The translations under genes were made by a program, and so were the position numbers. A stretch of 48,929 bases of DNA from Micromonosporaceae bacterium (lineage in GTDB: Bacteria > Actinomycetota > Actinomycetes > Mycobacteriales > Micromonosporaceae): positions 1-48,929 of the forward strand of contig JAEHDK010000738.1 of assembly GCA_016880465.1 (NCBI GenBank). Reading direction: 5' to 3'. Under the pieces are notes generated by a model. The model was not told the origin of the DNA. It worked only from the letters and a program-made list of their open reading frames with translations, and did not search any database. Positions 2,072-34,654 of this stretch are shown here, piece by piece. Positions within the stretch are counted from its first letter, which is position 1, and each line of letters starts with the position of its first letter.

Positions 2072-2081
2072 GGGGAGTCCG

Positions 2082-8620: not shown

Positions 8621-8644
8621 GGCATGCCCGGAAGGGAGCGAGGC

Positions 8645-9703
8645 GTGGACGACATCGAACGTCGCATGATGTCCACCGAGGAGATCAACGACCTTCCCGA
8701 CGACGCCTTCGCCTACATCGAGCCCGGCGGGACGAAGGACGCCCAGGGCAAGACCGTCCCCAGGTCGCTGCGGCACTTCCCCATCCACGACCGCGCGCAC
8801 GTCGAGAACGCGATGGCCCGCATGTCCCAGTCCCCACACGGCGAGCACGCCAAGAAGAAGATCATGGCGGCGGCCAAGAAGTACGGCATGGGCATGTCCG
8901 ATGACGCCGAACGTGCCGTGACCCGTTGCTGCCCGGCCGAGCACACCTTCGACCGCGAATGGCCGCTGGACGACATCGTCATCCGCGCCGGCGGCGACGG
9001 CCGCACCGTCGAGGCGTACGCCGCGGTCTTCGGCGTCCCGACGGAGGTCAAGGACCAGCACGGCCACTACATGGAGACCATCGACCGGGCCGCGTTCAAC
9101 GAGGTACTCGCCGAAGGCATCGACAAGGTTGGATGCTATTATCACCACGGGATGACCTTGCACGGCACCCCGTCCGACCTCGGATCGGTGCCCATCGGCT
9201 CCCCCGTCGACATCCGCGCCGATAGCAAGGGCCTTCGCACCATCACCCGGTTCAACAAGTCCGCCCTGGCCGACGCGACCCTCGAGGCCATCCGCGCCGG
9301 GGACCTGCGCGGCTACTCCTTCCGCGGCCCGATCCGCAAGTCCAACCCGCCACGCATCGCCCGCGCCCGCGACGGCCAACCCCTGCCTACTGTCACCCGC
9401 ATGGCGCTCGGGCTCAACGAGTACGGCCCCACCCCCACCCCGTACTACGCCGACGCGAGGATCCTGGCGGTCCGCTCGGCGCAGGCCATCGCCACCAACC
9501 CGGTCGCGCTCGCCGAACTTCAGGCCGAACTCGCCCGCATGCTTGCCCGCTCCACTCCGTTGGACCAGGAGCGGGACCCCGCCACTCCCACCGAGGGACC
9601 AGGCGCCGAGGACCAGCCCACCGAGGCACTCCGGTCGGCATCCATGCACGACATCCGCCGGCGCATCGCCGTATTCAAGATCCTCGGAGGAAGAAAGTCA
9701 TGA
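8645..9703 (+). CDS. HK97-family prohead (capsid maturation) protease
   Basis: The DIVIRAGGDGRTVEAYAAVFG...ETIDRAAF...LRGYSFRG region matches the U35/HK97 prohead protease pattern. N-terminal LRHFPIHDRAHVENAMARM module. GTG 8645 follows RBS GGAAGGGAG; in-frame alternatives are ATG 8624 and 8666. Confidence 0.85.
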   Translation: MDDIERRMMSTEEINDLPDDAFAYIEPGGTKDAQGKTVPRSLRHFPIHDRAHVENAMARMSQSPHGEHAKKKIMAAAKKYGMGMSDDAERAVTRCCPAEHTFDREWPLDDIVIRAGGDGRTVEAYAAVFGVPTEVKDQHGHYMETIDRAAFNEVLAEGIDKVGCYYHHGMTLHGTPSDLGSVPIGSPVDIRADSKGLRTITRFNKSALADATLEAIRAGDLRGYSFRGPIRKSNPPRIARARDGQPLPTVTRMALGLNEYGPTPTPYYADARILAVRSAQAIATNPVALAELQAELARMLARSTPLDQERDPATPTEGPGAEDQPTEALRSASMHDIRRRIAVFKILGGRKS

Positions 9704-11178
9704 GCCTCAAGCGCCTCGACGAGGTCGACGCCGAACTGGCGCTCGTCGAGCAGCAGATCGAAGAGATCAACAACCTGGCCGAGCCGGAGGGCGGAGACGC
9801 CGTCCGCGCCCAGATCCTGTCCGAACGCGACGCCCGCCTCGACGACCTGATCACCCGCCACAAGGAACTCCAGACCGAGCGGGAGCCGCTGCTGGTCCGC
9901 GCCAAGGAGCTGGACGCCATCCGCTCCGCGGCCCGCGACCGTGCCCGCACGGAGCCCGGCGACGGCGCGACCCCCGTCCGCTTCGACGGCCGCGGCCCGC
10001 AGGTCATGAACCGCGTCCAGCCGTACGAGGGCCTCGAACTGGTCCGCGCCGGCGTGGTTGCCCGCGAGGACATGATCGGCCGGGCGAAGGCCGCGGTCGA
10101 CACCGCCCCCAGGCACCTGTCCGACGACTCGCGGCAGAAGGTCACCCTCCTGCTGGAGGACGAGGGCAAGCAGGCCCCGCTCATCGCCCGGCACATGCTC
10201 CTCACCGGTTCGGAGGAGTACCACAAGCAGTTCCGCGAGTACATCGAGAGCAGGGGCGCCTACGCCGGTGACGTCATGCGTACCGCCCTGTCGCTGACCG
10301 ACGCCAATGGCGGCTACCTGGTGCCGTTCACCCTTGACCCGACCATCATCCTGACCAACGCGGGCATCCAGGGCACCATCCGGTCGATCTCCACCACGAA
10401 GACGATCGTCACCGACGCCTGGCACGGCGTCACCTCCGCCGGTGTCACGGCCGAGTGGCTCGCGGAAGCCACCCAGGCCGCGGACGCGACCCCGACCTTC
10501 GGCCAGCCCACCATCACCCCGCGCAAGGCCGCGGCGTGGGTGTTCGGCAGCTACGAAGTCCTGGCCGACTCCGGCTTCGCCAGCGAACTGCAGATGCTTC
10601 TGGCCGACGCCAAGCTGCGCCTGGAGGAAGCCGCATTCGCCACTGCGAACACGGCCGCGTCCAAGCCGGTCGGCATCGTGTCCGCCGTCGCCGCCATCAC
10701 CGCATCCATCGTCTCCTCGGCGACCATCACGTCGTTCGTCGTTGGCGACGTGTACCGGGTCGCCGACGCCCTGCGCGCCCGCGACGCCAGCCAGGCGTCG
10801 TGGATCGCGAACAAGACGATCTTCTCGAAGATCCGCCAGTTCGACACCTCCGGCGGCTCGGCGTTCTGGGCCAACCTCGGCATGGGCGTCCCGTCCCTGC
10901 TGCTCGGCCAGCCGCAGTACGAGTGCTCCACCATGGGCTCGGTGATCACCACGTCGGCCAACATCCTGCTCGCCGGCAACTTCAAGCAGTACTACGTGGT
11001 GGACCGGGTCGGCATGTCGGTGATGTACGAGCCGATGGTCAAGTCCACCAACGCCAACCGCCCTACTGGCGAGGCCGGCTGGTTCGCTTTTTGGAGGGTT
11101 GGGGCCGATACGGTCGATCCGGATGCCTTCCGACTCCTACAGCTACACACAACTCCTGGCTTCACCGCGCTCGCCTAA
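9700..11178 (+). CDS. Major capsid protein, HK97 fold, with coiled-coil delta domain
   Basis: ATGA overlap with the protease. The N-terminal ~100 aa are coiled-coil (scaffold-like). TDANGGYLVPFTLDPTIIL and the C-terminal MYEPMV.. pattern are typical of HK97-type capsids. Confidence 0.9.
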   Translation: MSLKRLDEVDAELALVEQQIEEINNLAEPEGGDAVRAQILSERDARLDDLITRHKELQTEREPLLVRAKELDAIRSAARDRARTEPGDGATPVRFDGRGPQVMNRVQPYEGLELVRAGVVAREDMIGRAKAAVDTAPRHLSDDSRQKVTLLLEDEGKQAPLIARHMLLTGSEEYHKQFREYIESRGAYAGDVMRTALSLTDANGGYLVPFTLDPTIILTNAGIQGTIRSISTTKTIVTDAWHGVTSAGVTAEWLAEATQAADATPTFGQPTITPRKAAAWVFGSYEVLADSGFASELQMLLADAKLRLEEAAFATANTAASKPVGIVSAVAAITASIVSSATITSFVVGDVYRVADALRARDASQASWIANKTIFSKIRQFDTSGGSAFWANLGMGVPSLLLGQPQYECSTMGSVITTSANILLAGNFKQYYVVDRVGMSVMYEPMVKSTNANRPTGEAGWFAFWRVGADTVDPDAFRLLQLHTTPGFTALA

Positions 11179-11275
11179 CCGTGAGCGGGCGTCCTAGTTG
11201 GACGTGCCGCCAGGATGCGAAGTACCACCCAATCCATCATCATCCAACGACGGTCTCGGCTGATCCCCGAGACAA

Positions 11276-11309
11276 GGAACCCCCGGGCACCCAGGAGCCC
11301 GGGGGTTCC
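11276..11309 (+). terminator. Perfect 13-bp hairpin downstream of capsid gene
   Basis: GGAACCCCCGGGC-ACCCAGGA-GCCCGGGGGTTCC. Preceded by a 7-bp hairpin GTCTCGG..CCGAGAC. Confidence 0.6.
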
Positions 11310-11330
11310 GCACATCCTGGGAGATGCGAA

Positions 11331-11963
11331 ATGGAACAAACCTGTCCAGAATGCGGCGGTGCCGTAGTCCAATGTGGAGTCGGACGCCCGCGAAAGTTCT
11401 GTTCTGAGCAATGCAAGATGCGGGCCACCAACCGGCGCAGTCGGCGTGCGTGGTTGCCGATCCGGCAGCGCTACTCGGGCATATGCAAGTGGTGCGACGG
11501 GCCGTTCGAGGCCACGAAACGCGGGAAGATCTTCTGTTCCCAGCGATGCGCCAACGCAGTGAGCAAGCGCCGTTCCCGCCGTGGCGAGCACGGCAAGGGG
11601 CCGAAGCCGTGCGCTACGTGTGGCAAGACCTTCGATGCGGTTCGATCGACGCACCGTTGGTGCTCGCAGCAGTGCAGAAACCGCCACTTCGGCCTCGTCA
11701 GGTCACGCAGCCGAGCCAAGCCATCCGGCGCCACCTACACTGACCGCGAGATATTCGAGCGCGACGGCTGGCGATGCCATCTTTGCGGCGACAAGGTGGA
11801 TCCGACAGTGGATCGACGCCATCCCGACGGGGCGACGATCGATCACCTCGTACCCATCTCGCTCGGCGGCGAGGACGAGCCGGCCAACGTCGCGACGGCG
11901 CACTGGAAGTGCAACCGCGACAAGGGCACGCGCGCCGTCGGCGAGCAGCTTGCCCTTCTGTGA
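11331..11963 (+). CDS. HNH endonuclease with three N-terminal CxxC..FCSxxC zinc-ribbon repeats
   Basis: ATG 11331 lies inside the long track ORF 10455-11963, whose 5' part overlaps the capsid gene and is rejected. WRCHLCGDKV...IDHLVPISLGG...NVATAHWKCNRDKG is the HNH motif. Confidence 0.85.
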   Translation: MEQTCPECGGAVVQCGVGRPRKFCSEQCKMRATNRRSRRAWLPIRQRYSGICKWCDGPFEATKRGKIFCSQRCANAVSKRRSRRGEHGKGPKPCATCGKTFDAVRSTHRWCSQQCRNRHFGLVRSRSRAKPSGATYTDREIFERDGWRCHLCGDKVDPTVDRRHPDGATIDHLVPISLGGEDEPANVATAHWKCNRDKGTRAVGEQLALL

Positions 11964-12062
11964 CGCGCGGGTGTGTTAGCCTGCGGATCTACTCGGGCCA
12001 GCCGTGGCCCGTGGATGTGTGAGGCGACTAGACGCTCTCGGATCCCGAGAGAGGTCTGTCCA

Positions 12063-12410
12063 ATGCACGCACAACCGTCCCTGCTCAATGTCCCGGCACC
12101 TCGTGGCGAGGTCGTCTACTACGTAACTGACGGCTGCTACATCAAGATCGGGCGTACCAAGTCGCTGCGCCGCCGTGGCGGTGAACTGCGCACGCAGATG
12201 ATCTACAGCCTTCCTGGTGGACCGGTGGAGGAGCGCGAGCATCACCGGATGTGGGCCGCGAACCGCATCGGGTCCTCAGAGTGGTTCCGCGTCTCCGAGG
12301 ACCTGCTGCTGTGGCTGTTCGCCCGCACCTACGGTCAGCACCACATGCGCGAGGTCGGCGTCATTCGACATCTAGCGCTGGCGCTGGAGCGTGAGCGGGT
12401 GGCGGCATGA
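12063..12410 (+). CDS. T5orf172/MUG113 (GIY-YIG-like) nuclease-domain protein
   Basis: VVYYVTDGCYIKIGRTKSLRRRGGEL...EREHHRMWAANRIGSSEWFRV fits the T5orf172 pattern. ATG 12063 follows RBS GAGAGAGG. Confidence 0.7.
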   Translation: MHAQPSLLNVPAPRGEVVYYVTDGCYIKIGRTKSLRRRGGELRTQMIYSLPGGPVEEREHHRMWAANRIGSSEWFRVSEDLLLWLFARTYGQHHMREVGVIRHLALALERERVAA

Positions 12411-12763
12411 GCAAGGACACCGGCAGGGTGCGGTGGGCGAAGAACAACGACAGCGTTGCCGTCGAACTCCGGGCATTCTGTGTCGGCTGTGGTCTACCCA
12501 GGGGGATCGCTCCTGCTGGCCGCCATGGCCCGACTGTCGAAGGCTGGATGGACGACCAAGTCGACCGACGCCTTCAGAAGGAAATGTCCCCGATCGCCGA
12601 GCGTCGCCGGATGCACGAGCGAGTGACCGCCGAGTTCCGCCTGACCCTAAACGGCTGGAATGAGCCCTGTGGGTGTGGTGGACGTGGGGTCGTCTTTTCT
12701 TGGGGAAGCCACTTCTGCCCGGTGACCCATCGGCACTACAAGTGCCCGCATTTGGATACCTGA
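12407..12763 (+). CDS. Hypothetical Cys/His-rich protein
   Basis: ATGA overlap with the previous gene and high third-position GC. No recognisable domain. Confidence 0.55.
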   Translation: MSKDTGRVRWAKNNDSVAVELRAFCVGCGLPRGIAPAGRHGPTVEGWMDDQVDRRLQKEMSPIAERRRMHERVTAEFRLTLNGWNEPCGCGGRGVVFSWGSHFCPVTHRHYKCPHLDT

Positions 12764-12800
12764 CCCCCCGCCGCCTGCCAGGCGGTCGGGCGGCGGGGTC
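12762..12800 (+). terminator. GC-rich hairpin preceding the glycosylation island
   Basis: GACCCC(CC)GCCGCC ... GGCGGCGGGGTC, 12 bp with a 2-nt bulge. Begins at the stop codon of 12407-12763. Confidence 0.4.
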
Positions 12801-12828
12801 AACCGCCTACCGACCGCCTGGAGGATCA

Positions 12829-13578
12829 ATGGCCAACGAAGACGGTGTTGTCGTCGCCTGGGTGCGCCCGGCGCAGCTGCACGGCAACTTCATGGAGTGT
12901 CTGCTCAACCTGGTCTACTACGACCGCGAGCACTACGACCGGCTGGCCCCGGGTCGGGGTGGGCTGATCTCGCAGACGTCGAGCGCGAACATCTCGGGTG
13001 CCCGGAACACGGTGTGCCTGGAGTTCCTGACCTCGCATGCCGCCCCGTGGCTGCTGCTGTTGGACACGGACATGACGTTCCGCCCGGATCTGGTCGAGGC
13101 GCTGTTGGAGTACGCCGATCCGGTGAAGGCGCCGATCGTGGGCGGGCTGTGCTTCTCGATGGACAACGACGGGAAGCTGTTCCCCACGTTGTACGACCTG
13201 ATCGGCGAGGCGGACAGTCCGGAGTTTGTCCGGTACCACGAGTGGAAGCCGGACGCGATGATGCAGGTGTTCGCGACGGGTGCGGCGTGCATGTTGATCC
13301 ACCGGGATGCGCTGCGGGCGGTGCGGGACTACCGGCTGCCGGACCATCCGGGTCGGGTGGGGTTTTCGCAGGCGTTTCCGTGGTTTCAGGAGACGGACTT
13401 CTTCGGCCGGGTGATGGGTGAGGACATCACGTTCTGTATGCGGGCCGGCCATGCGGGGGTTCCGATTCACGTGAACACGGCGGTGCAGCTCGGGCACATC
13501 AAGCAGTTCGAGCTGAACTTGGAGCATTTCGCGGGCCAGCGGGCGCTGGAAGAGGCGAAGGCGGCCGCCGGTGAATAG
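12829..13578 (+). CDS. Glycosyltransferase, GT-A fold (family 2-like)
   Basis: ATG 12829 follows RBS GGAGGA. LLLLDTDMTF (DxD), GGLCFS, ATGAACMLIHRDAL and MGEDITFCMRAGHAG resemble GT2 enzymes. Confidence 0.8.
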   Translation: MANEDGVVVAWVRPAQLHGNFMECLLNLVYYDREHYDRLAPGRGGLISQTSSANISGARNTVCLEFLTSHAAPWLLLLDTDMTFRPDLVEALLEYADPVKAPIVGGLCFSMDNDGKLFPTLYDLIGEADSPEFVRYHEWKPDAMMQVFATGAACMLIHRDALRAVRDYRLPDHPGRVGFSQAFPWFQETDFFGRVMGEDITFCMRAGHAGVPIHVNTAVQLGHIKQFELNLEHFAGQRALEEAKAAAGE

Positions 13579-13753
13579 CCTGGTCGACTATCTCGCCGCG
13601 AAGTTGGCCGCCACTGAGGCTGGGTGCACGTGCCGGGATCAGCGCAAAACGATTGAGGCGCAGTTGCCGCCGGGCACCCTAGTGCTGATCGACTGCGTCG
13701 AGCACGGGCTGGTCCGTACGCGGGTTGCCGGCTTCGATTGGGTGACCACATGA
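13571..13753 (+). CDS. Small hypothetical protein
   Basis: 60 aa. Overlaps both neighbours (8 nt upstream, ATGA downstream). Confidence 0.45.
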   Translation: MNSLVDYLAAKLAATEAGCTCRDQRKTIEAQLPPGTLVLIDCVEHGLVRTRVAGFDWVTT

Positions 13754-14406
13754 GCGACATCGCTGTGGTGGTGCCGGTGCTCAACCGTCCGAATCACGCC
13801 GCGCCGATCATGGAGTCCCTGCGCGCGTCGACGGAGAACGCGGCGGTGTACGCGGTCGTGTCCGAACGGGACACCCGAACCGAGTCGGCGTGGATCGTGG
13901 CCGGTGCAAATGTGCTCACGTCGCCGCTGATGACGTTCCCGGAGAAGGTCAACTATGCGTACTCGGTGACCGGCGAGCCGTGGCTGTTCCTGACTGGTGA
14001 CGATGTGAAGTTCCACGCCGGCTGGGCCGAGGAGCTGCTCCGTGTGGCGGCCGGGACGGGCGCGCTGGTGGTCGGGTCCAACGACCTGGCCAACCCGCGG
14101 TCGGAGGACGGGTCGCACTCGCCGCACATGCTGATCTCACGCCAGTACATCGCCGATCAGGGGGCGTCGTGGGACGGCCGTGGGGTGGTGTGCCATGAGG
14201 GATACCGTCACATGTTCGTCGACGACGAGATCGTGACGGTGGCCAAGCAGCGCGGGGTGTTCGCCTTCGCCAAGGATGCGGTGGTGGAGCATCTGCACCC
14301 GGTGGCCGGGAAGGCTGAGGTGGACGCCACGTACCGGCTGGGCTGGTCGTACGCGGATGTCGACAAGTCGCGTTTCGCCGAGCGGATGCGGGAGAACGCA
14401 CTGTGA
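13750..14406 (+). CDS. Glycosyltransferase, GT-A-like
   Basis: IAVVVPVLNRPNHAAPIMESL... and LFLTGDDVKFHAGW (DD motif). ATGA start overlap. Confidence 0.7.
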   Translation: MSDIAVVVPVLNRPNHAAPIMESLRASTENAAVYAVVSERDTRTESAWIVAGANVLTSPLMTFPEKVNYAYSVTGEPWLFLTGDDVKFHAGWAEELLRVAAGTGALVVGSNDLANPRSEDGSHSPHMLISRQYIADQGASWDGRGVVCHEGYRHMFVDDEIVTVAKQRGVFAFAKDAVVEHLHPVAGKAEVDATYRLGWSYADVDKSRFAERMRENAL

Positions 14407-14741
14407 CGCGCGTCAGCGCCGACGGTGGCGCCACGTGGATCGAGTGGCCGGACGCCAAGATCCTGCTCCGCGCTCGTGACGGCGTGTGCCAAATTGAAGC
14501 CGAGTGGCCGTCGTGCGAACCGGCCGAGCCGCTGATCCCGCTCGTCGGCTCGTTTGTCGCCATGGTGGTCGAGGTTGGACAGTCTCCGAAGGTCCGGTAC
14601 TTCGGCCGCGCACTGCTGGAGAGCGTTGAGATGGACGGCGCCATTTCCTCCGTCCGATTCATCGAGGCGCCGAGTTGCGAGGAAGATCGGTGGAGCCGTC
14701 ACTCCACTGAGCCGCTCGATATGGCGGGACGGAAGGCGTGA
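14403..14741 (+). CDS. Hypothetical protein within glycosylation island
   Basis: GTGA overlaps at both ends. No recognisable domain. Confidence 0.5.
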   Translation: MTRVSADGGATWIEWPDAKILLRARDGVCQIEAEWPSCEPAEPLIPLVGSFVAMVVEVGQSPKVRYFGRALLESVEMDGAISSVRFIEAPSCEEDRWSRHSTEPLDMAGRKA

Positions 14742-15226
14742 CACAGAGTCGGGAAGAACTCGAGGACTGGTACAAGACTCCGGATCCGTGGGGGTTCCAG
14801 ACCAACCCCGCCGACGCCGATCGCAAGGCCCGGATCCTGGTGGCAATCAAACGGCCCGGCCCGAAGTACAAGCGGGCACTCGACGTCGGCTGCGGCGAGG
14901 GGTGGATCACCAAGGACCTGCCCGCCACGCTGATTCACGGCCTGGAGTTGAGCCGGACGGCCCGGATGCGGATCCCCGCGCCAGTGGTGGCGGTGGATGA
15001 GCCGTCGGGCAGGTATGACCTGATCCTCGTCAGTGGTGTGCTCTACCGGCAGTTCGAATGGCAGGCCATCCACGACCTGGTCGCCAACCACGCGGCCAAG
15101 GGTGCGACGGTAGTCACCTGCCACATCAAGGACTGGGAGATGCCTCTGCCCGGCGAGGCCGAGCTGGTGGAGGAGTTCCCGTACCGCGAGTACGTCGAGG
15201 TGCTGCGGCGGTACCGGTGGCAGTAG
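14738..15226 (+). CDS. Class I SAM-dependent methyltransferase (NodS-like)
   Basis: N-terminal DWYKTPDPWGF and motif I LDVGCGEGWIT. DLILVSGVLY is post-I/II-like. Confidence 0.8.
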   Translation: MTQSREELEDWYKTPDPWGFQTNPADADRKARILVAIKRPGPKYKRALDVGCGEGWITKDLPATLIHGLELSRTARMRIPAPVVAVDEPSGRYDLILVSGVLYRQFEWQAIHDLVANHAAKGATVVTCHIKDWEMPLPGEAELVEEFPYREYVEVLRRYRWQ

Positions 15227-15228
15227 GT

Positions 15229-15693
15229 GTGTTCCACCGGATCGGCGCGCCGGATCCGGGGACGTTCACCAACAGCATGGACCAGATCCGCGGCTTCGCC
15301 GGCGAGAAGACGTTCGACGGCATCTACACCTCCGTGTGGGACCACCGGGACGAGGTCCGCGACCTCGGCGGGGTGTGGCTGTTCGCCGCCGGCGACACGA
15401 TCGGCAAAGACGGCTTCATCACCCACCACCAACTGTTGACGCTGGCGCACGAGTACGGGTGCCGGCTGGGTTGGCACACGTGGTCACATCCGGACATGCG
15501 GACCCTGTCCGACGATCAGATCCGGGCCGAGTTGGACTGTCCTGACTGGATGCCCCGGGACGCGTTCGCCTACCCGTACGGGGACTTCGACGAGCGCGTG
15601 GCAGGCCTGGTGAAAGAGGCCGGCTACGGCAAGGCGTACTCGACCACCCAGGGCAACGGCAGTGACTTCGCGATCCGGCGCGACTACATCTGA
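15229..15693 (+). CDS. Polysaccharide deacetylase-like (NodB homology, short form)
   Basis: GTG 15229 is 3 nt after the previous stop. HTWSHPDMRTLS matches the NodB H(S/T)xxH motif, and FAYPYGDFDERV is the typical motif 4. The canonical N-terminal DD motif was not seen. Confidence 0.6.
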   Translation: MFHRIGAPDPGTFTNSMDQIRGFAGEKTFDGIYTSVWDHRDEVRDLGGVWLFAAGDTIGKDGFITHHQLLTLAHEYGCRLGWHTWSHPDMRTLSDDQIRAELDCPDWMPRDAFAYPYGDFDERVAGLVKEAGYGKAYSTTQGNGSDFAIRRDYI

Positions 15694-16300
15694 GCACGTC
15701 GCCGCCTGCAAGCGGGACGGGTTCGCCCGGATCCCCGGCGTATTCGGCCGGGATGAGACCGACCGGCTGCGGGCTGAAGCGATCCTGGCCTGCCGCGGCG
15801 GGAACGTGGAGGTCCGCGACGGCTACCCGTGCCTGCTGTTCTGGCCCGACAGCACCTACATGCGGGCGCTGGCCCGGGACCGCAGGTTGTTGGACATCGT
15901 GTCGGCCTACTACGGCCACACCGACTACGAACTCGAAACCCAGCAGTACTACTTCCACCTGCCCGGGGATCCGGACGAGTTCGCCTGGCACACCGACGAA
16001 CGTTTCCGACCGGGCGTGGGCAACCTGTACCTGCAAACGGCCATCCTCGTCGACGACTGGACCGTGGACAACGGGGCGGTGGAGTTCATCTCCGGCTCCC
16101 ACCGGTCGACCTTCGTCAACTCGGGCGACCTGCGGGTGTTCATCCGCGGGGAGCGCCGCGGCGTGCAACTGCTGGCCCGCGCGGGCGATGTGCTCACGTG
16201 GTCGAACACGGTGGTCCACGGCTCCGAGCACAACCGGTCCGATCGTGCGCGGGGGTACTTCATGAACGGGTTCCGGTCCGGCACCTTGGCGCAGTGTTGA
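15662..16300 (+). CDS. PhyH-family Fe(II)/2-oxoglutarate dioxygenase
   Basis: FAWHTDE (HxD), DNGAVEFISGSH and VVHGSEHNRSDRAR fit the phytanoyl-CoA dioxygenase-like facial triad and Arg. GTG 15662 is the only in-frame start (32-nt overlap). Confidence 0.75.
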   Translation: MTSRSGATTSEHVAACKRDGFARIPGVFGRDETDRLRAEAILACRGGNVEVRDGYPCLLFWPDSTYMRALARDRRLLDIVSAYYGHTDYELETQQYYFHLPGDPDEFAWHTDERFRPGVGNLYLQTAILVDDWTVDNGAVEFISGSHRSTFVNSGDLRVFIRGERRGVQLLARAGDVLTWSNTVVHGSEHNRSDRARGYFMNGFRSGTLAQC

Positions 16301-16857
16301 ACACCTGCGTCATCGCCTCCTACCGGTACGGGCACCTGGCCGCCCAGGCCATCGAGTCGGTGCTGTACCAGACCAAGCCGTTCGACCGGATCCTGTTCGT
16401 CGATGACGGGGTGGGTGACTGCGGCCACCTGCCGGCCATCTACCCGGAAGTCGAGTACGTCCTGCGCCCCGAGCGCATGGGGATCGTGGCGAACTTCAAC
16501 GACATGCTCGCCCGGGTAGACACCGAGCGGGTCATGTACCTGGGCGCGGACAACTGGCTGGACCACTCCACGTTGGAGATCACCTCCGCTGTCGACGCGG
16601 ACATCGTCTCCTACGCCGCGTGGCTGATCAAAAGCGGCCCGCCGGTGCGGTGGCATGTCGACGTGCCGCACGGCAGTTCCCTGTACCGGGTGGCGCCGGC
16701 TCGGGCGGTCGGGTGTTACGAGGCCAGCGGTCACACGAACACCGAGGAGGACTCCGTGATGTTCGCGCGGATGCGCTCGGCGGGCGCGACGTTCGACAAC
16801 CGGTCTGACACGCTCCTGTACTACCGCTGGCGACACCGCAGGAACTTCAACCAGTGA
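16294..16857 (+). CDS. Glycosyltransferase family 2-like
   Basis: CVIASYRYGHLAAQAIESVLYQT...ILFVDDGVGD and LGADNWL (DxD-like). GTG 16294 overlaps the previous stop. The 5' part of track ORF 15829 is rejected. Confidence 0.75.
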   Translation: MLNTCVIASYRYGHLAAQAIESVLYQTKPFDRILFVDDGVGDCGHLPAIYPEVEYVLRPERMGIVANFNDMLARVDTERVMYLGADNWLDHSTLEITSAVDADIVSYAAWLIKSGPPVRWHVDVPHGSSLYRVAPARAVGCYEASGHTNTEEDSVMFARMRSAGATFDNRSDTLLYYRWRHRRNFNQ

Positions 16858-17501
16858 TCTCCTGGATCGTTGCCTCCCACCACTACCCGACACTGCGGGA
16901 CAACCTGGGAGCCACGATCCGCGGCGTGGGCGACGACGAGGTCGTAGTGGTGGAGGACGTCCCGTCGATCGCGAAGGCGTACAACGAAGGCCAGGCCCGG
17001 GCCACCCAGCCGATCCGCGTCTACGTCCACCACGACGTACAGATCCGCGACGCGCGCCGCCTGCGCGCCGGACTCGTCGAGCACTGCACGCCGGCGATGG
17101 GTTGGGTCGGGGTCATCGGATCCACCGACCGGGCCCTGCCATGGTGGGACGCCGCGGCCAAGTGCGGGTCCGTCGTGGACGCGCGGCTGGGCCTACTCGA
17201 CTTCGGCCCGGGCGGGGCCTGCGCCTACCTCGACGGCCTACTGCTCGCCACTGTGCATGAATGGACGTGGGACGAGTCGTATCCCGGCTGGCACTGGTAC
17301 GACCACGACATCTGCGAGCAGGCGCGGAGCGACGGCTTGCCGAACTGGTGCCTGACCGACGGCCATCGGCTGGTGTTGCACAACACCACCGGCAGCGCGG
17401 TCACCGATCAACTTCCCAACTGGCACGAGGGCAAGACCCGATTCGTCGAGAAGTGGGGTGTGGACCTTGGCGCTCGGCGCGAGTTACGCGACGCTGGCTG
17501 A
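16854..17501 (+). CDS. Glycosyltransferase-like protein (Glyco_tranf_2_5-like)
   Basis: ISWIVASHH...VVVVEDVPSIAKAYNEG and LDGLLLATVHEW..GWHWYDHDICEQA resemble the 'glycosyltransferase like family' proteins. Confidence 0.65.
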   Translation: MISWIVASHHYPTLRDNLGATIRGVGDDEVVVVEDVPSIAKAYNEGQARATQPIRVYVHHDVQIRDARRLRAGLVEHCTPAMGWVGVIGSTDRALPWWDAAAKCGSVVDARLGLLDFGPGGACAYLDGLLLATVHEWTWDESYPGWHWYDHDICEQARSDGLPNWCLTDGHRLVLHNTTGSAVTDQLPNWHEGKTRFVEKWGVDLGARRELRDAG

Positions 17502-18084
17502 ACTCCGCTCCCGACTCCAGGTGTCCGACGCCGCGTTCACCGGCGAGGACACGAAACTGACCGCGGCGCTCGCAACGGCCTCGCGGGGGATCGAGAAACT
17601 GTGTGGCCGGCAGTTCAACGTCGCCGGCTCCGCCACCGCGCGCGTCTATGAGCCGTTCTCGTACACGCTGGTGAAGGTCGACGACATATCCACCACGTCC
17701 GGGCTCGTTGTGAAGACCGACACCGCCGGCGACGGCACCTACTCGACCACCATCACCTCCGCCCAGTACCAACTGCGGCCGTTGAACGGGGTTGTCGACG
17801 GGGAGACCGGCTGGCCCTACTACGAGATCGAGTCCATCAACCAGTATTGGCCGACGTACTGGCAGATCGCCCCCATACAGGTGACCGCCAACTGGGGCTG
17901 GTCCGCTGTTCCCGCCGCGATCAAAGAGGGCTGCCTGATCCTCGCCGAGGAGATCTACCGTGTTGCCGAACTCCCCTTCGGTGTCGGGGGCTACGGCCAG
18001 TTCGGGATCATCCGCGCGCGCGCGAACCCGATGGTGATGGCCCGGATCGGCCCGTACGTCCGCGATCCGGTGATGGTCGGATAG
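17458..18084 (+). CDS. Head-tail connector (gp6-like adaptor)
   Basis: YATLAELRSRLQV...TKLTAALATASRGIEKLCGRQF is typical of gp6-like head-tail connectors. Start is GTG 17458 or TTG 17467. Confidence 0.7.
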   Translation: MWTLALGASYATLAELRSRLQVSDAAFTGEDTKLTAALATASRGIEKLCGRQFNVAGSATARVYEPFSYTLVKVDDISTTSGLVVKTDTAGDGTYSTTITSAQYQLRPLNGVVDGETGWPYYEIESINQYWPTYWQIAPIQVTANWGWSAVPAAIKEGCLILAEEIYRVAELPFGVGGYGQFGIIRARANPMVMARIGPYVRDPVMVG

Positions 18085-18503
18085 TGGCCGACGTCAAGGC
18101 GGTTCGGGATCGGGTCGTCACCCGGATCCGTGCCGCGGTCACCGGGATCAACGTCATGGACTTCATGGTGGTCAACCCGGTCCTGCCCGCGGCCCTGGTC
18201 GCGCCGCCGCCCGGGACGTTCCTGACCGAGGTCACCGGCGACGGCTGCGAGGACCTGGACCTGGTGGTGACGGTGTTGGTGTCGAACACGATGTCGCAGA
18301 ACGCGCAGAACCGGTTGGACGAGTACCTGTCCGAAGGCGCGTCGCAGAACCTGGCCAACGCGATCGAGTCCGGGTCCACGGCCGACTGGGACTACGCCAT
18401 CGTCGGCGCGGCCCGCAACTACGGCTCGTTCGTGTTCGGCTCCGGCGACCAGGCCCAGACGTTCCTCGGCTTCGAACTGCCCGTCACGGTAGGACTGTCG
18501 TGA
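18084..18503 (+). CDS. Head-tail joining protein (tail-terminator/DUF3168-like)
   Basis: GTG 18084 overlaps the previous TAG. 139 aa. The call rests on position and size only. Confidence 0.5.
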   Translation: MADVKAVRDRVVTRIRAAVTGINVMDFMVVNPVLPAALVAPPPGTFLTEVTGDGCEDLDLVVTVLVSNTMSQNAQNRLDEYLSEGASQNLANAIESGSTADWDYAIVGAARNYGSFVFGSGDQAQTFLGFELPVTVGLS

Positions 18504-18522
18504 CCGAGGCGGTGATGAAGTA

Positions 18523-18561
18523 GTGCGGATCCTGCTGGTGGCCCCGGGTCCGCACTTCTAG
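18523..18561 (+). other. Out-of-frame N-terminal segment (VRILLVAPGPHF-stop) of the downstream CgeB-like glycosyltransferase
   Basis: A Rossmann-type first strand is encoded in the frame one nucleotide behind the downstream ORF (a +1 shift joins them) and ends at TAG 18559-18561. The downstream frame is open from 18524 but has no start codon before 18668. Confidence 0.6.
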
Positions 18562-18667
18562 CGTCAGCGTCTTCGACATCTTCGAGGGCTGGCGGGAAGC
18601 GCTCACCGAACTCGGTCAGACGGTAGCCACCTACCAGACGGGGGACCGGCTCACCTTCTACGAGTCG

Positions 18668-19570
18668 GTGCTCCTTCCGTCCGGCCGGCCAGGACCAGAA
18701 GGCCAGAGCGAGTTCCACAAGGCGCTGACAACAGACCAGGCCGCGCAGTTGGCCCTCAACGGCCTGCTCTCCGCCTGCTACCAGTTCTGGCCCGACGTCG
18801 TCGTCTTCGTCACCGGCTTCCTGGTGCAGCCGGAGATGGTGGAACTCATCTACAGCCGCGGCCACAAGGTGGTCATCGTCTGCACCGAAAGCCCGTACGA
18901 GACGGCCCGCGAGTTGAAACTGGCCGAGCACGCCGACCTCGTGCTGCTGAACGACCCGACCCACATCGACCGCTTCCGTGAGGTCGCGCCCACCATCTAC
19001 GCCCACCAGGCGTACCGACCGTCGGTGCACAAGCCCGGGCCCGCGCGTAAGAACATGGCTAGCGACCTCGCGTTCGTCGGCACCGGGTATCCCAGCCGGA
19101 TCGCGTTCCTCGAGGCGATGGACCTCACCGGGCTGGGCGTACTGCTCGCCGGCAACTGGCAGACGCTCACCGAAGAGTCGCCACTGCATCGGTTCTTCGC
19201 CAACAAGCCCGACGAGTGCCTGTCCAACGAGAGCGCGGTGCACGTCTACCGCTCGGCCCGGATGGGCATGAACCTGTACCGCCGGGAAGCCGAACGTCCC
19301 GAACTGTCGCAGGGCTGGTCGTGCGGCCCCCGGGAGATTGAGATGGCCGCGGTCGGGTTGCCGTTCCTGCGAGAACCTCGCGGCGAGTCCGACGAACTGT
19401 TTCCCATGCTGCCGTCCTTCACGTCGTCGGGTGAGGCGTCGGAGCTGCTCCGCTGGTGGCTCGCCCACCCGGTGGAGCGCGAGGAGGCGGCACTCAAGGC
19501 TCGGTCGGCAGTCGCCGACCGGACGTTCAACCAGCTCGCCGTGGAGTTGCTACGGCATCTCGAGTCCTGA
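18668..19570 (+). CDS. CgeB-like (GT-B/GT1-fold) glycosyltransferase, possibly frameshifted at its 5' end
   Basis: FVGTGYPSRIAFLEAM...LAGNW...VYRSARMGMNLYR...GPREIEMAAVGLPFL resembles CgeB/Glyco_trans_1_2 proteins. Conserved-looking residues (SVSVFDIFEGWREALTELG..) lie upstream of the first start codon. Confidence 0.7.
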   Translation: MLLPSGRPGPEGQSEFHKALTTDQAAQLALNGLLSACYQFWPDVVVFVTGFLVQPEMVELIYSRGHKVVIVCTESPYETARELKLAEHADLVLLNDPTHIDRFREVAPTIYAHQAYRPSVHKPGPARKNMASDLAFVGTGYPSRIAFLEAMDLTGLGVLLAGNWQTLTEESPLHRFFANKPDECLSNESAVHVYRSARMGMNLYRREAERPELSQGWSCGPREIEMAAVGLPFLREPRGESDELFPMLPSFTSSGEASELLRWWLAHPVEREEAALKARSAVADRTFNQLAVELLRHLES

Positions 19571-19594
19571 TACTCTTAGGAAGGAAACGGACAA

Positions 19595-19993
19595 GTGTCG
19601 AGAATTCACGGCAAAAGGGGACGTTTCTATATCGGCATAGCTTCGGGCGGAACTCCCGAGCCGCTGCCGTTCATCGCCCGCTGGGCCATCCGGTTTCCCA
19701 CCGACAAGGCCGACGTCACGGCGATGGGCGACACCCACAAGACGTACGTCTCCGGGATGCCCGACTGCACCGGCATGGTGTCCGGGTTCCTGGATGACGC
19801 GACCGCGCAGACCTACACCGCGGCCACCGACTCGATCGCCCGCAGCTTCTACTTATACCCCGATTTGTCCAGTAACACGAAGTACTGGTACGGGACGTGT
19901 GTCATCGACTTCACCGCCGAGGGTGGCGTTGACGGTGGTGTGACGCTGAACGCGGACTGGGCTGCGGCGTCGACGGTGACCCGAGTTCCGTAG
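19595..19993 (+). CDS. Major tail (tube) protein
   Basis: 132 aa. RBS AGGAAGGAAA precedes GTG 19595. RFYIG..PLPFIARWAI....DVTAMGD..K.YVSG..D is like small siphovirus tube proteins. Lies upstream of the chaperone and tape measure genes. Confidence 0.7.
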   Translation: MSRIHGKRGRFYIGIASGGTPEPLPFIARWAIRFPTDKADVTAMGDTHKTYVSGMPDCTGMVSGFLDDATAQTYTAATDSIARSFYLYPDLSSNTKYWYGTCVIDFTAEGGVDGGVTLNADWAAASTVTRVP

Positions 19994-20457
19994 TGGCCGT
20001 CGACCTGACGGTCCGCGGCCAGGCCAAGTTGGACGAGGTCGCCGCCCGGCTGGCGAAGGAGGCCCGGCGGTTTCAGCGCCGGGTGTCCCAGGCGACCAAG
20101 GATGCGGTCGAGTCGTCCTACCGGCCGGTGCTGGTTGGCATGACCCCGACCTTCGTGCCCAACGGGTACGCCGCTGTGTTGGCTCCGAGCCTTCGGGTGG
20201 CTACGACTGTGTCGTTCGCGTCGGGTCGGGTCACAGCCCGGGTGTCGGCGCCGACGGGCGGCAAATTCGGCCGCGACGTCCGCCAGTTGGAGGCCGGCAG
20301 CCTGCGGCATCCGCTGTTCGGCAACCGGGGCTGGTGGTACCGGCAGCGGGTGCGGCGCGGGTTCGCGTCGGTGCCGTTGCGCGCGATCCGCCCGCACATC
20401 GTGGCCCGCATCGACCACGAGTTGGCGCAGATCGCCCGGGACGTGGAGAGGGGATAG
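19993..20457 (+). CDS. HK97 gp10-family-like head-tail/tail-completion protein
   Basis: MAVDLTVRGQAKLDEVAARLAKEARRF...the N-terminal pattern resembles the HK97 gp10 family. Unusual position after the tube gene. Confidence 0.5.
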   Translation: MAVDLTVRGQAKLDEVAARLAKEARRFQRRVSQATKDAVESSYRPVLVGMTPTFVPNGYAAVLAPSLRVATTVSFASGRVTARVSAPTGGKFGRDVRQLEAGSLRHPLFGNRGWWYRQRVRRGFASVPLRAIRPHIVARIDHELAQIARDVERG

Positions 20458-20889
20458 ATGAAGGTACGGCCGTGCGAGGCCGACCGGCAGCGGTTCGGTC
20501 TGCCGGAGTGGTGCGAACTGGACTTCCGCAACGTGACGGTCGGTGAAATGACGGAGCTGGCGAATCGGTTCGGGTTCGACCAGAACGACTGGCCGGAAGT
20601 CCTGCAGGGCCAGTTGACGTTGGAGCAGGCCGGCAATCCGGATGCGGTGCCGAAACCGCCGACGTGGCGGAACCTGCTCGTGGCGTGGCTGCTGTTGCAC
20701 CAGAACGGTGTGGATGCGTCGTGGGAGGACGCCGGCGACGTTCACATGTTCCTGCTCGAGTACGACCTTCCCGCCCCGGAGCCGGCCGTGGGAAAAGGAC
20801 AGCCCCGGGACCGTCTCTCGCCGCAGAACGGCACTGGTTCTACGACCCGGCGTTCAAGGAGCTCTACGGCTACGAGCCGCAAGAAATAG
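20458..20889 (+). CDS. Tail assembly chaperone (G-like, frame 0 product)
   Basis: Lies immediately upstream of the tape measure and contains a slippery heptamer. The frame-0 tail after the slip site looks non-native (Arg/Ser/Thr-rich). Confidence 0.75.
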   Translation: MKVRPCEADRQRFGLPEWCELDFRNVTVGEMTELANRFGFDQNDWPEVLQGQLTLEQAGNPDAVPKPPTWRNLLVAWLLLHQNGVDASWEDAGDVHMFLLEYDLPAPEPAVGKGQPRDRLSPQNGTGSTTRRSRSSTATSRKK

Positions 20890-20996
20890 ACGCCATGCCC
20901 TGGCGACGTTGGGCGGCCCTGCGTCACTACGCCGACTGGCGGCTAGGAGTCAAGTCGGACGGCCTTGATCCCGGCGAGGAAGACATCGAGATGTGA
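20458..20996 (+). CDS. Tail assembly chaperone G-T fusion via -1 frameshift at 20790-20796
   Basis: The -1 frame continues ..VGK|KRTAPGPSLAAERHWFYDPAFKELYGYEPQEIDAMPWRRWAAL.. to TGA 20996. Confidence 0.7.
20790..20796 (+). promoter_or_regulatory. -1 programmed ribosomal frameshift slippery heptamer G_GGA_AAA
   Basis: An X_XXY_YYZ heptamer in the correct phase (frame-0 codons GGA 20791, AAA 20794). The downstream ORF is in the -1 frame. Confidence 0.75.
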
Positions 20997-21008
20997 GCGG
21001 GGGCGGGT

Positions 21009-33743: not shown

Positions 33744-33772
33744 GCCCGAGCCGGTCACAACCCGGCTCGGGC
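33744..33772. terminator. 11-bp perfect hairpin at the integrase 3' end
   Basis: GCCCGAGCCGG-TCACAAC-CCGGCTCGGGC. The int stop codon (TCA on the plus strand) sits in the loop. Confidence 0.5.
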
Positions 33773-34654
33773 CCCCGTGTCTGGCACCGGCAGCGCGAGC
33801 ACGGCAGCGCGGCGTTGATGGCCGGTCACCTGCGTGTATCCCTGGGTGCTGGTGACGTTCTTGTGCCGCAGGCACTCCTGGGTGACCCGCAGGTCCCCCA
33901 CGGTGGCCTGGATCAGCGTCCCGTACCGATGCCGGAGCCGGTGCAGGTGCACTGTATGCAACCCCAGCCGGTCGAGGTGGTACCTGGCCGTCTGGGTGAT
34001 CCAGTGCCCGTCGACCGGTTGTCCCCTGCGGTTGGTCACGAGCGGGCCGGGTGACCGGTTCACCACCAGCGCCCAGACGATCGGGTGGGTCGGTACGACA
34101 CCCGGTTGGTCACCCTTGCCCGAGGGGATCAGGATCGTCTCAGCCGTGATGTGCTCGCGCATGCAGGCCGCGATCTCCGATACCCGCATGCCCGCGTACC
34201 CGGCGAGGGTGGCCGCGGTGCGCAGCGGTTCCGGTAGGGCGTCGAGCATGGCCGCCAGCTCCTCCTCGGTGACCGGTTTCGGTAGGCACCTCGGGGCCTT
34301 CGGCTGGGGGATGGAGGCGGTGGGGTCTCCGTCGAGAAACCCGGCGGAGGTGGCCCACTGGTAGAAGGCCCGGATGTGGTAGGCGTACACGGACAGTGTC
34401 CAGCGGGACCGACCCAAGGTGCGGAGGTCGGACAGCCACGCCTCGATCTGCTCGGTGGCGGCGAACGCGAGGCCGAAGGGCAGCCATCCGTTGAGCCGGC
34501 CGAGCACGTTGACGCGTGCCTCGATGGTGCGTCTGCTCTTGCCTCCCGCCCGTAGGTGCCGGGCGTGGAGGTCCAACAACTGATCACTCATCCGCAGATC
34601 TTCGTGACGTCGGGTCACTACGGGCAACCCCTCTCCAGTCTGTGATGGCTCCAC
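33755..34654 (-). CDS. int: Tyrosine integrase (XerC/D-like, 299 aa)
   Basis: GMRVSEIAA (Arg I), HLHRLRHRYGT (HxxR) and LRHKNVTSTQGYTQV (His..Tyr). The start overlaps the repressor stop by 1 nt. Alternative start is ATG 34591. Confidence 0.9.
   Translation of the reverse strand: MEPSQTGEGLPVVTRRHEDLRMSDQLLDLHARHLRAGGKSRRTIEARVNVLGRLNGWLPFGLAFAATEQIEAWLSDLRTLGRSRWTLSVYAYHIRAFYQWATSAGFLDGDPTASIPQPKAPRCLPKPVTEEELAAMLDALPEPLRTAATLAGYAGMRVSEIAACMREHITAETILIPSGKGDQPGVVPTHPIVWALVVNRSPGPLVTNRRGQPVDGHWITQTARYHLDRLGLHTVHLHRLRHRYGTLIQATVGDLRVTQECLRHKNVTSTQGYTQVTGHQRRAAVLALPVPDTGARAGL

Follow-up and report, generated by a model that had tools for sequence, protein, structure and literature searches.

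The stretch of DNA analyzed here, which we refer to as the window (48,929 nucleotides, 48.9 kb; 67% GC), appears to represent the whole, or nearly the whole, of a temperate siphovirus infecting an actinobacterium and carries, at positions 12829-17501, an island of glycosyltransferase and tailoring-enzyme genes. Nine genes, all on the + strand, were tracked frame by frame through this interval by the GC content of third codon positions (GC3). The successive junctions measure -8, -4, -4, -4, +2, -32, -7, and -4 nt, followed by -44 nt into the open reading frame (ORF) of the head-tail adaptor. Since the genes overlap or abut, it is fair to call them translationally coupled. A preliminary description of this DNA had proposed nine tightly packed + strand genes with these boundaries, which the GC3 frames and the overlapping junctions bore out, and had placed them between a capsid and nuclease block and the head-tail connector, which was confirmed by domain matches on both flanks. 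The seven enzyme assignments that it had made also survived profile or fold checks carried out for each ORF. The term 'nine-gene island' holds only in part: the seven enzymes stand, but the island comprises, besides them, two small non-conserved ORFs lacking homologues in related loci.

These two ORFs, of 60 residues (13571-13753; GC3 of 0.80) and 112 residues (14403-14741), had no match in Pfam, PHROG, or NCBIfam and no blastp counterpart in the related loci. The relatives contain different small ORFs, or none, at both positions, which are therefore variable filler positions. Related loci are designated below by L numbers, which refer to contigs carrying homologues; every fetchable long contig was inspected and compared by blastp. 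All proteins of the island look soluble, the 19-residue Kyte-Doolittle maximum being lower than 1.6 in each of them. A hydropathy scan combined with domain calls revealed no membrane-spanning segment, flippase, polymerase, or lipid-carrier enzyme in the island.

Four adjacent genes (14738-16857), encoding a methyltransferase, a deacetylase, a dioxygenase, and a GT2 glycosyltransferase, form a conserved cassette that is preserved in evolution as a unit and that had gone unrecognized in the preliminary description. The product of the first gene (14738-15226) is a NodS-like class I S-adenosylmethionine (SAM) methyltransferase with a DPW motif and the sequence LDxGCGEG. Its family profile matched the crystal structure of NodS (3ofj) at 1.5e-9 over residues 4-119, the next best match being at 3e-5, and Pfam searches retrieved Methyltransf_23 (9e-6) and NodS (1.8e-3). 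The second gene (15229-15693) encodes a short deacetylase of the CE4/NodB-like type (ca. 155 residues) with the motifs TFDG, HTWSH, and FAYPYG and an N-terminal FHR. It matched Pfam Polysacc_deac_1 (PF01522) with 41 bits for a cut-off of 23.1, over model positions 46-121, and, by profile, structure 2j13 (1.9e-7). The AlphaFold (AF2) model of the protein has a pLDDT of 91, and its best Foldseek matches were the CE4 enzymes BC0361 and BA0330 (probability of 1.0; TMq of 0.73 and 0.68, respectively). The gene caller of the protein database begins the deacetylase four codons earlier, and the start may be at 15217 rather than 15229.

The third gene (15662-16300) encodes an Fe(II)/2-oxoglutarate (2OG) dioxygenase of the PhyH family (Pfam PF05721, 68.9 bits for a cut-off of 22). 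Residues H110, D112, H186, and R197, which correspond to the HxD...H triad and the 2OG-binding arginine, are invariant in 23 aligned sequences. The closest solved structures are small-molecule hydroxylases, namely EctD (1.4e-12) and leucine hydroxylase, and MysH is also related. The PhyH members acting on sugars (SnoK, SnoN, and the orthosomycin oxygenases) are more distant from the enzyme of the window. The fourth gene (16294-16857) encodes a minimal GT2 glycosyltransferase of 187 residues, in which DDG, GADNW, and EEDS are invariant. It matched PF00535 (4.5e-10, 40 bits) and, as a family profile, GT2 structures of the PDB (9e-7). Family profiles were required for this protein and for the methyltransferase, as PDB searches with the single sequences were uninformative.

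An overlap of exactly 32 nt between the genes for the deacetylase and the dioxygenase is present in seven loci (the window, L002, L005, L009, L014, L015, and L016). In the low-GC loci, the codons for the invariant TTQG of the deacetylase, ACACAAGGAG, provide the AAGGAG ribosome-binding site of the dioxygenase. Attribution of the overlap to a miscalled dioxygenase start was rejected, since the 25 N-terminal residues are conserved as protein sequence in loci ranging from 42 to 68% GC. The idea that a frameshift fuses the two enzymes was unsupported and was dropped.

Homologues of the dioxygenase formed 78 clusters (46-88% identity), nearly all of them metagenomic. The cassette was found in 14 phage sequences, consisting of the window and 13 contigs, and the gene order was the same in 13 of the 14 (the window, L002, L005, L007, L008, L011, L014, L015, L016, L017, L021, L022, and L023). 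The methyltransferase was kept in all 13 phage contigs, and the GT2 enzyme was adjacent to the PhyH enzyme in 12 of them. Typical lengths are about 158 residues for the methyltransferase, 156 for the deacetylase, 190-215 for the dioxygenase, and 187 for the GT2 enzyme. Over the order-keeping loci, which span 42-68% GC, the core proteins are 43-88% identical to those of the window. Five of these loci are close relatives (L005, L007, L008, L014, and L017; 66-68% GC), which as a group also possess the four other glycosyltransferases of the window, designated GTa, GTb, GTd, and GTe, and a giant portal fusion. The seven others (L002, L011, L015, L016, L021, L022, and L023) have unrelated backbones of 42-50% GC, and their core proteins are 43-77% identical to those of the window. 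Portal, capsid, or adaptor matches of the SU10/P22 type were obtained for L002, L015, L016, and L021; L022 displayed a terminase only, L023 a faint capsid match, and L011 is unannotated. The cassette-bearing backbones thus include HK97-type siphoviruses and SU10/P22-like podoviruses, with unrelated capsid and portal types. The neighbors of the cassette are always structural or packaging genes: it follows the capsid gene, precedes the adaptor gene, or lies in the terminase-portal interval.

The thirteenth contig, MW202801 (uncultured podovirus ctQWt234, Manatee Spring), carries the genes in the order PhyH, methyltransferase, NodB directly after the capsid gene. Other glycosyltransferase genes flank this trio, and a gene for a radical-SAM/SPASM enzyme adjoins it. 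Among 50,697 GenBank phage records, this was the only one containing the tailoring trio, without the GT2 gene of the cassette, and none of the cultured phages among these records had the deacetylase, dioxygenase, and methyltransferase set. A scan for the dioxygenase in one genome per species of the GTDB (185,579 species) revealed no prophage copy and two distant matches, one of which (L013) is a solitary PhyH gene in an unrelated neighborhood. Conservation of gene order and sequence in spite of unrelated backbones and of a GC content varying from 42 to 68% speaks for a substrate that does not depend on the host and for joint transfer of the four genes.

The remaining glycosyltransferases form a lineage-specific set around the cassette. 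GTa (12829-13578) is a GT-A/GT2-like accessory enzyme with DTD and ED motifs. It matched PHROG 34859 ('glycosyltransferase'; 1.4e-17), and Pfam GT2 families with scores below cut-off (9e-5 to 4e-2). Blastp among the related loci detected homologues in L005, L007, L008, and L014 only (58-89% identity). GTb (13750-14406), an accessory enzyme of the GT-A fold with GDDV and DDE motifs, gave weak results by sequence (Pfam GT2, E = 0.1; PHROG 14945, 2.8e-9). The PDB profile search with GTb returned no match, and hhalign detected no relationship between the profiles of GTb and the cassette GT2 enzyme, GTc (probability of 0.1). Since profile comparisons were empty, the identity of GTb was settled by structure prediction: the AF2 model (pLDDT of 95) had 542 PDB matches at E<=1e-3 in Foldseek, all of them GT-A enzymes (best match at 7.6e-10), with GpgS, WrtF, SpsA, and TarP at the top. 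At least 196 clusters of GTb homologues were obtained, with PF00535 present in some. GTb is only 22-24% identical to glycosyltransferases of Arthrobacter and Streptomyces phages. One GTb homologue (52% identity) adjoins genes for a primase/helicase and a 2OG-FeII_Oxy_3 (prolyl-hydroxylase-type) oxygenase in the replication module of another phage (L018, 10001-11415). This neighborhood may represent a different system modifying DNA or protein.

GTd (16854-17501), also an accessory enzyme, belongs to the Glyco_tranf_2_5 family (Pfam PF13712; 6.9e-18, 65.6 bits). Blastp matches were confined to the close relatives (64-76% identity), and no match was found among the GenBank phage records. The existence of a fifth, CgeB-like glycosyltransferase downstream from the island had also been proposed. 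Its family was confirmed, as GTe (18523-19570, + strand) is a GT-B enzyme of the CgeB type (Pfam Glyco_trans_1_2, 1.2e-12) encoded between the tail terminator and major tail protein genes, but the gene starts at 18523 and is not intact. Comparison by tblastn with the homologues of L014, L007, and L005 (338-339 residues) located a frameshift of 1 nt near 18556-18561. Residues 1-12 (VRILLVAPGPHF) are encoded in one frame, which ends with TAG, and residues 11-336 in the next, from 18560. The intact ORF as assembled starts only at 18668 and would lack the first strand of the N-terminal Rossmann domain. The frameshift may stem from an indel introduced during assembly; otherwise the lesion is real and GTe would be a pseudogene.

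A very stable hairpin (12774-12824, + strand; -45 kcal/mol, z = -4.9) precedes the first glycosyltransferase gene, and its 3' arm pairs with the GGAGG ribosome-binding site of GTa. An alternative stem, CCCCGCCGCC/GGCGGCGGGG, is possible. Comparable hairpins followed by GGAGGA are present in relatives L014 and L007, and this structure may be a regulatory or attenuating element. A second hairpin lies just 3' of the capsid gene (11276-11309, + strand; 13-bp GC stem, -35.3 kcal/mol, z = -4.3). This candidate attenuator or terminator could cause the downstream enzymes to be expressed less than the capsid protein. No sigma-70-like promoter was predicted in 9000-21000.

The left arm of the phage contains genes for the large terminase (473-2071), a giant portal fusion of 1731 residues (1980-7175), an S78 prohead protease (8624-9703), and an HK97-type major capsid protein (9700-11178, + strand; Pfam Phage_capsid, 8.6e-37), which is a candidate acceptor for glycosylation and is 35-42% identical to capsid proteins of Mycobacterium Cluster I (Brujita) and Gordonia phages. 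The portal fusion has its portal domain at residues 128-450 and a SAP domain near residue 890; versions of this protein in relatives range from 1267 to more than 1900 residues, and one has 2',5'-RNA-ligase/LigT-like matches. Separating the capsid gene from the island is a block with an HNH endonuclease gene with an N-terminal zinc ribbon (11331-11963, + strand; Pfam HNH, 3.9e-10; frame backed by GC3), an ORF with weak T5orf172/MUG113 (GIY-YIG-like) similarity (11973-12410, + strand; Pfam scores of 1.3e-3 and 7.7e-3, below cut-off; PHROG 8604, of unknown function, 9e-11), and a Cys-rich ORF of 118 residues (12407-12763). In L005, L007, L014, L015, L016, and L022, too, the cassette is flanked by HNH genes, and homing endonucleases might assist its movement. 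In Brujita and Mcklovin, the nearest cultured relatives by capsid sequence, the connector genes directly follow the capsid gene. The ca. 6.3 kb formed by the nuclease block and the island are therefore an insertion into the canonical order.

Downstream from the island are genes for the head-tail adaptor that marks its boundary (17458-18084, + strand; PHROG 442, 8.5e-20), the tail terminator, the major tail (tube) protein (19595-19993, + strand; PHROG 10528, 3.4e-10), which is a second candidate acceptor, and large tail proteins. One protein of the tail region (939 residues; 22844-25663) partially matches a phosphodiesterase PHROG (1.4e-41) and is possibly a tail enzyme degrading wall polymers. 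The right arm encodes a tyrosine integrase (33755-34654, minus strand), an ERF recombinase, Dam and N6/N4 DNA methylases, and a WhiB-like regulator. A tRNA scan of the window was negative. No GenBank phage matched the window at the DNA level (12000-19000 queried in near and distant modes).

With moderate confidence, we propose that the genes of 12829-17501, together with GTe (18523-19570), encode soluble enzymes that are produced from the late operon and build a tailored glycan on structural proteins of the virion. A chemically tailored virion glycan had been suggested in the preliminary description, and this interpretation is plausible and has been strengthened in part. We are far more confident of a narrower claim, namely that the island is a module for the building and editing of carbohydrate. 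Virion proteins would most likely be the acceptor, judging from the position of the genes, the solubility of the enzymes, their association with tetratricopeptide repeat (TPR)-glycosyltransferase fusions (see below), conservation of the cassette across hosts, and the precedent of mycobacteriophages. Glycosylation would take place late, in the cytoplasm, while the particles assemble. The lineage-specific layer (GTa, GTb, GTd, and GTe) would start and extend the glycan, and the mobile four-gene cassette would install and edit one particular residue. We infer which sugar is used and how, and in which order, it is tailored: the GT2 enzyme would add an N-acetylhexosamine, the CE4 enzyme would strip off the N-acetyl group, the methyltransferase would N-methylate the freed amine, and the dioxygenase would hydroxylate or otherwise oxidize the sugar or its substituent. 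In Nod-factor biosynthesis, NodB de-N-acetylates chito-oligosaccharides at their terminal GlcNAc, which exposes an amine for subsequent N-methylation by NodS. Because NodB-like and NodS-like enzymes are here adjacent, inseparable, and located beside a minimal GT2 enzyme, addition of a sugar followed by deacetylation and N-methylation is the simplest model. Alternatively, the dioxygenase might hydroxylate an amino-acid side chain and create the attachment site, which appears less likely since, in cells, the counterpart of the cassette belongs to an O-antigen locus. A bolder version of the proposal for virion glycosylation, which we advance only tentatively and hold to be rather doubtful, is that the cassette is a mobile capping module placing a de-N-acetylated, N-methylated, and oxidized amino sugar on the capsids of phages infecting hosts of different phyla. 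The structural proteins might thereby be masked, for instance from capsid-sensing abortive-infection systems, from proteases, or from adsorption to decoy surfaces. To our knowledge, no such amino-sugar modification has been described on any virion.

Several clues bear on the substrate. The cellular counterpart was found in a metagenome-assembled genome of Bacteriovorax stolpii (L012; CAMAQA010000003.1, 9872-12800), which encodes a PhyH enzyme and a methyltransferase, each 35% identical to its phage homologue, and a protein of 532 residues in which a CE4 domain is joined to a GT2 glycosyltransferase. The CE4 domain of this fusion is of the same subfamily as the phage CE4 enzymes, with which it aligned in hhalign (probability of 96%, E of 4e-9), and both contain the unusual motifs TFDG, WHTxxH, and FAYP. 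The Bacteriovorax genes are located directly after wzm/wzt-type ABC transporter genes, amid genes for NeuB, HAD, GT2, and GDP-mannose-dehydratase-family proteins. Fusion of two members of the cassette in a polysaccharide locus indicates that the four enzymes cooperate on carbohydrate. The Bacteriovorax module itself could be chain-terminating or capping in an ABC-transporter-dependent pathway. In the phages, the lack of a flippase, polymerase, lipid-carrier enzyme, or membrane segment implies that the acceptor must be cytoplasmic. Retention of the cassette at high identity in phages whose hosts must be very diverse disfavors a host wall polymer and favors a substrate supplied by the phage.

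Proteins of 582-803 residues combining TPR with a glycosyltransferase are encoded immediately upstream from the cassette, or near it, in podovirus-type contigs (L015, 6685-9096; L016, 6007-8280; L022, 2504-4252), the TPR matches being faint or weak. This layout recalls the architecture of protein O-GlcNAc transferase. TPR arrays commonly bind proteins, and the TPR-glycosyltransferase fusions, together with the radical-SAM/SPASM enzyme of MW202801, hint at a protein substrate. The capsid proteins of island-bearing relatives have a C-terminal extension of 6 residues containing threonine (LHTTPxFTALA; ..LHTTPGFTALA in the window), which Brujita and Mcklovin lack. This extension may fit, if weakly, the C-terminal location of reported glycosylation sites.

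A number of observations weigh against decoration of the virion or against the chemistry proposed for it. The methyltransferase scored 26 bits in comparison to the NodS equivalog (NCBIfam NF041650), for a cut-off of 300, with an alignment limited to the 55 N-terminal residues; judging from sequence, it is NodS-like and not NodS. The deacetylase was compared with the canonical set of CE4 motifs (TFDD, H(S/T)xxH, RxPY, DxxD(W/Y), and LxH). HTWSH and FAYPYG are invariant in the alignment, but motif 1 is TFDG instead of TFDD, the second aspartate being missing, and motifs 4 (DxxD(W/Y)) and 5 (LxH) are absent from their usual C-terminal position. The invariant N-terminal FHR and AGDT could replace motifs 4 and 5 in a predicted, permuted CE4 arrangement. 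Truncation to a pseudogene was rejected, as all 28 homologue clusters have lengths of 138-166 residues and the model is confident. The fifth glycosyltransferase, GTe, is frameshifted as assembled. The presence of a GTb homologue in the replication module of another phage implies that the GTb family is not tied to virion genes, and none of the five glycosyltransferases (island and GTe) had a mycobacteriophage match by tblastn against the 50,697 phage records. Location in a structural operon is only circumstantial evidence for the nature of the substrate. The hairpin and the ribosome-binding site proper to GTa make separate regulation possible, and, since the integrase makes the phage temperate, expression in lysogens, which the preliminary description had named as a scenario that would refute its reading, is conceivable from the sequence. 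Finally, clusters of DNA-glycosylation genes occur near phage structural genes (Pyle et al., bioRxiv 10.1101/2023.12.21.572611).

Modification of the host envelope (arabinogalactan, teichoic-acid-like polymers, or capsule), leading to superinfection exclusion in lysogens or to a change of the envelope during infection, would suit a phage endowed with an integrase. Wall polymers are modified by prophage glycosyltransferases, one of which, TarP, was among the structures matching the fold of GTb. The counterpart of the cassette in Bacteriovorax belongs to an O-antigen-type locus, and the hairpin and strong ribosome-binding site ahead of GTa could mark a separately regulated unit. However, the membrane protein, flippase, and lipid-carrier glycosyltransferase that characterize Gtr-type or lipid-linked systems are absent from the island, whose genes are co-oriented and overlapping in a late structural operon, without a predicted sigma-70-like promoter in 9000-21000. 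In addition, phages of 42-50% GC, the hosts of which must be very different, have a cassette with 43-77% identity, which hardly suits a host-specific wall polymer as substrate, and the dioxygenase scan of 185,579 species, with one genome for each, detected no prophage copy. We regard envelope modification as unlikely. Slightly less probable is the production of a soluble glycoconjugate or metabolite, in which a small molecule or nucleotide sugar would be made or edited and nothing would be attached to the particle, such as diversion of UDP-GlcNAc or synthesis of a signaling or inhibitory oligosaccharide akin to a Nod factor. NodB and NodS do act on free chito-oligosaccharides, the PhyH relatives of solved structure act on small molecules (EctD, leucine hydroxylase, MysH, SnoK/SnoN, and the orthosomycin oxygenases), and all island proteins are soluble. 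Against this, the island has no NodC-like processive synthase, NodA acyltransferase, or exporter. The steady placement in structural modules, beside TPR-glycosyltransferase fusions, is unexpected for metabolic genes, and the additional glycosyltransferases of the window point to assembly of a polymer on an acceptor.

Hypermodification of DNA, in which the enzymes would glycosylate and edit modified bases before packaging in order to evade restriction, is more improbable still. Pfam scans of 30 ORFs located outside the island (10 to 939 residues) detected no C5-cytosine methyltransferase, TET/5mYOX enzyme, or thymidylate-synthase-like hydroxymethylase, although ORFs devoid of a Pfam match cannot be excluded; only Dam, N6/N4 amino-methylases, ERF, integrase, WhiB, and HNH were retrieved. 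As no enzyme generating a hydroxymethyl-pyrimidine was found, DNA would offer no obvious hydroxyl group as acceptor. The dioxygenase belongs to the PhyH type, with EctD, a small-molecule hydroxylase, as its closest match, and not to the TET/JBP type. We know of no role of CE4 deacetylases or NodS-like methyltransferases in DNA glycan pathways; these families do not fit such a pathway, and the cellular counterpart is in a polysaccharide locus. The idea nevertheless draws on the existence of phage GT-A and GT-B enzymes glycosylating 5-hydroxymethylcytosine (5hmC), some of them in clusters near structural genes (bioRxiv 10.1101/2023.12.21.572611), on the position of the GTb homologue of L018 beside a primase/helicase and a 2OG oxygenase, and on a partial match of GTb to a PHROG annotated as DNA methyltransferase. 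It is very improbable, last, that the CE4 protein is itself borne by the particle and edits host surface glycans at adsorption. In Haloferax tailed virus 1 (HFTV1), the turret head protein exposes a CE4 domain on the capsid surface (PMC12494034), and editing of host glycans has been proposed for it. This turret protein ranked third in the PDB (probability of 0.99, TMq of 0.54) and first in a viral library in the Foldseek search with the deacetylase of the window. The latter is, however, a bare catalytic domain of 154 residues without a capsid- or carbohydrate-binding module, is always encoded between the methyltransferase and the dioxygenase with translational coupling to the dioxygenase, and is fused to a glycosyltransferase in the Bacteriovorax counterpart. 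Assignment of the island to a defense system was rejected, PADLOC having returned only a weak methyltransferase-domain match to MADS mad2.

If the particle is decorated as we propose, phage glycans would not only be polymerized but also enzymatically edited by de-acetylation, methylation, and oxidation, and a compact four-gene tailoring unit would move between siphoviruses and podoviruses of hosts of 42-68% GC. The order of the cassette and the 32-nt overlap provide a handle for the search for glycosylated phages in metagenomes, and this small set of soluble enzymes is a candidate for protein glyco-engineering. The phage genes also point to their cellular counterpart, a fused CE4-GT2 in the O-antigen-type locus of a predatory bacterium.

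The virion glycosylation systems of mycobacteriophages Che8, Corndog/Cluster O, and Myrna, which Freeman et al. are said to have described in 2023, are a first term of comparison. Cluster O phages encode an O-methyltransferase and three glycosyltransferases within the structural operon, and their capsid and tail tube are reportedly glycosylated at the C-terminus (PMC4351075; PMC11600133; PMC12619734). Among phages, glycosylation of the virion is so far on record for a few mycobacteriophages, with glycosyltransferases and a methyltransferase only, and is reported to reduce neutralizing antibody responses, which is relevant to phage therapy (PMC11600133). As in these systems, the window has glycosyltransferase and methyltransferase genes inside an actinobacteriophage structural operon, five glycosyltransferase genes being located between its capsid and major tail protein genes, and capsid and tail tube are the proposed targets. 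The Corndog enzymes are soluble and are not virion components (PMC4351075); those of the window likewise look soluble. The mycobacteriophage precedent invoked in the preliminary description thus holds for the structural operon, but not for the position within it, since the Corndog genes lie between portal and protease and those of the window between capsid and connector. The window adds a CE4 deacetylase and a PhyH dioxygenase. Its methyltransferase is NodS-like, with an N-methyltransferase as the nearest structure, whereas the mycobacteriophage enzyme is annotated as an O-methyltransferase. Unlike the mycobacteriophage sets, its tailoring cassette is shared with podoviruses of distant hosts. 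The combination of a deacetylase with a 2OG dioxygenase had been put forward as unprecedented, and indeed it was absent from the cultured phages among the 50,697 GenBank records; in the literature found, nothing combined phage, capsid, glycosyltransferase, deacetylase, and dioxygenase.

The rhizobial Nod-factor enzymes (NodC, a GT2 enzyme; NodB, a CE4 enzyme; and NodS) resemble the cassette in that the same three classes stand side by side and are cytoplasmic. The GT2 enzyme of the cassette is, in contrast, minimal and soluble (187 residues), NodC being a membrane chitin-oligomer synthase; NodA is missing, the CE4 enzyme is truncated or permuted with TFDG, a PhyH dioxygenase is added, and the likely acceptor is a protein-linked glycan. 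In the Bacteriovorax locus, as in the window, genes for the PhyH enzyme, the NodS-like methyltransferase, the TFDG-variant CE4 enzyme, and GT2 are all adjacent, but the identity is 27-35%, the order is PhyH, methyltransferase, CE4::GT2, and the wzm/wzt neighbors suggest an exported polysaccharide. MW202801 shares with the window a PhyH enzyme, a 'DREV' methyltransferase, and a NodB-like protein encoded directly after the capsid and flanked by glycosyltransferases. It differs by its sequences (32-48% identity), gene order (PhyH, methyltransferase, NodB), flanking glycosyltransferases, and additional radical-SAM/SPASM enzyme, and is known from its annotation only. In the DNA glycan clusters of Pyle et al., too, a dioxygenase and a methyltransferase accompany multiple glycosyltransferases of the GT-A and GT-B types, but these clusters need a C5-cytosine methyltransferase and a TET-type 5mYOX, or a hydroxymethylase, and their dioxygenase and methyltransferase families differ from those of the window. 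The island thus probably carries out a more elaborate glycosylation of the phage particle than those known. In kind, genes for virion glycosylation in the structural operon of a phage are known; what is new, and undescribed in the literature found, is the enzyme families, the layer formed by the deacetylase, N-methyltransferase, and dioxygenase, and the mobility of the four genes across phage morphotypes.

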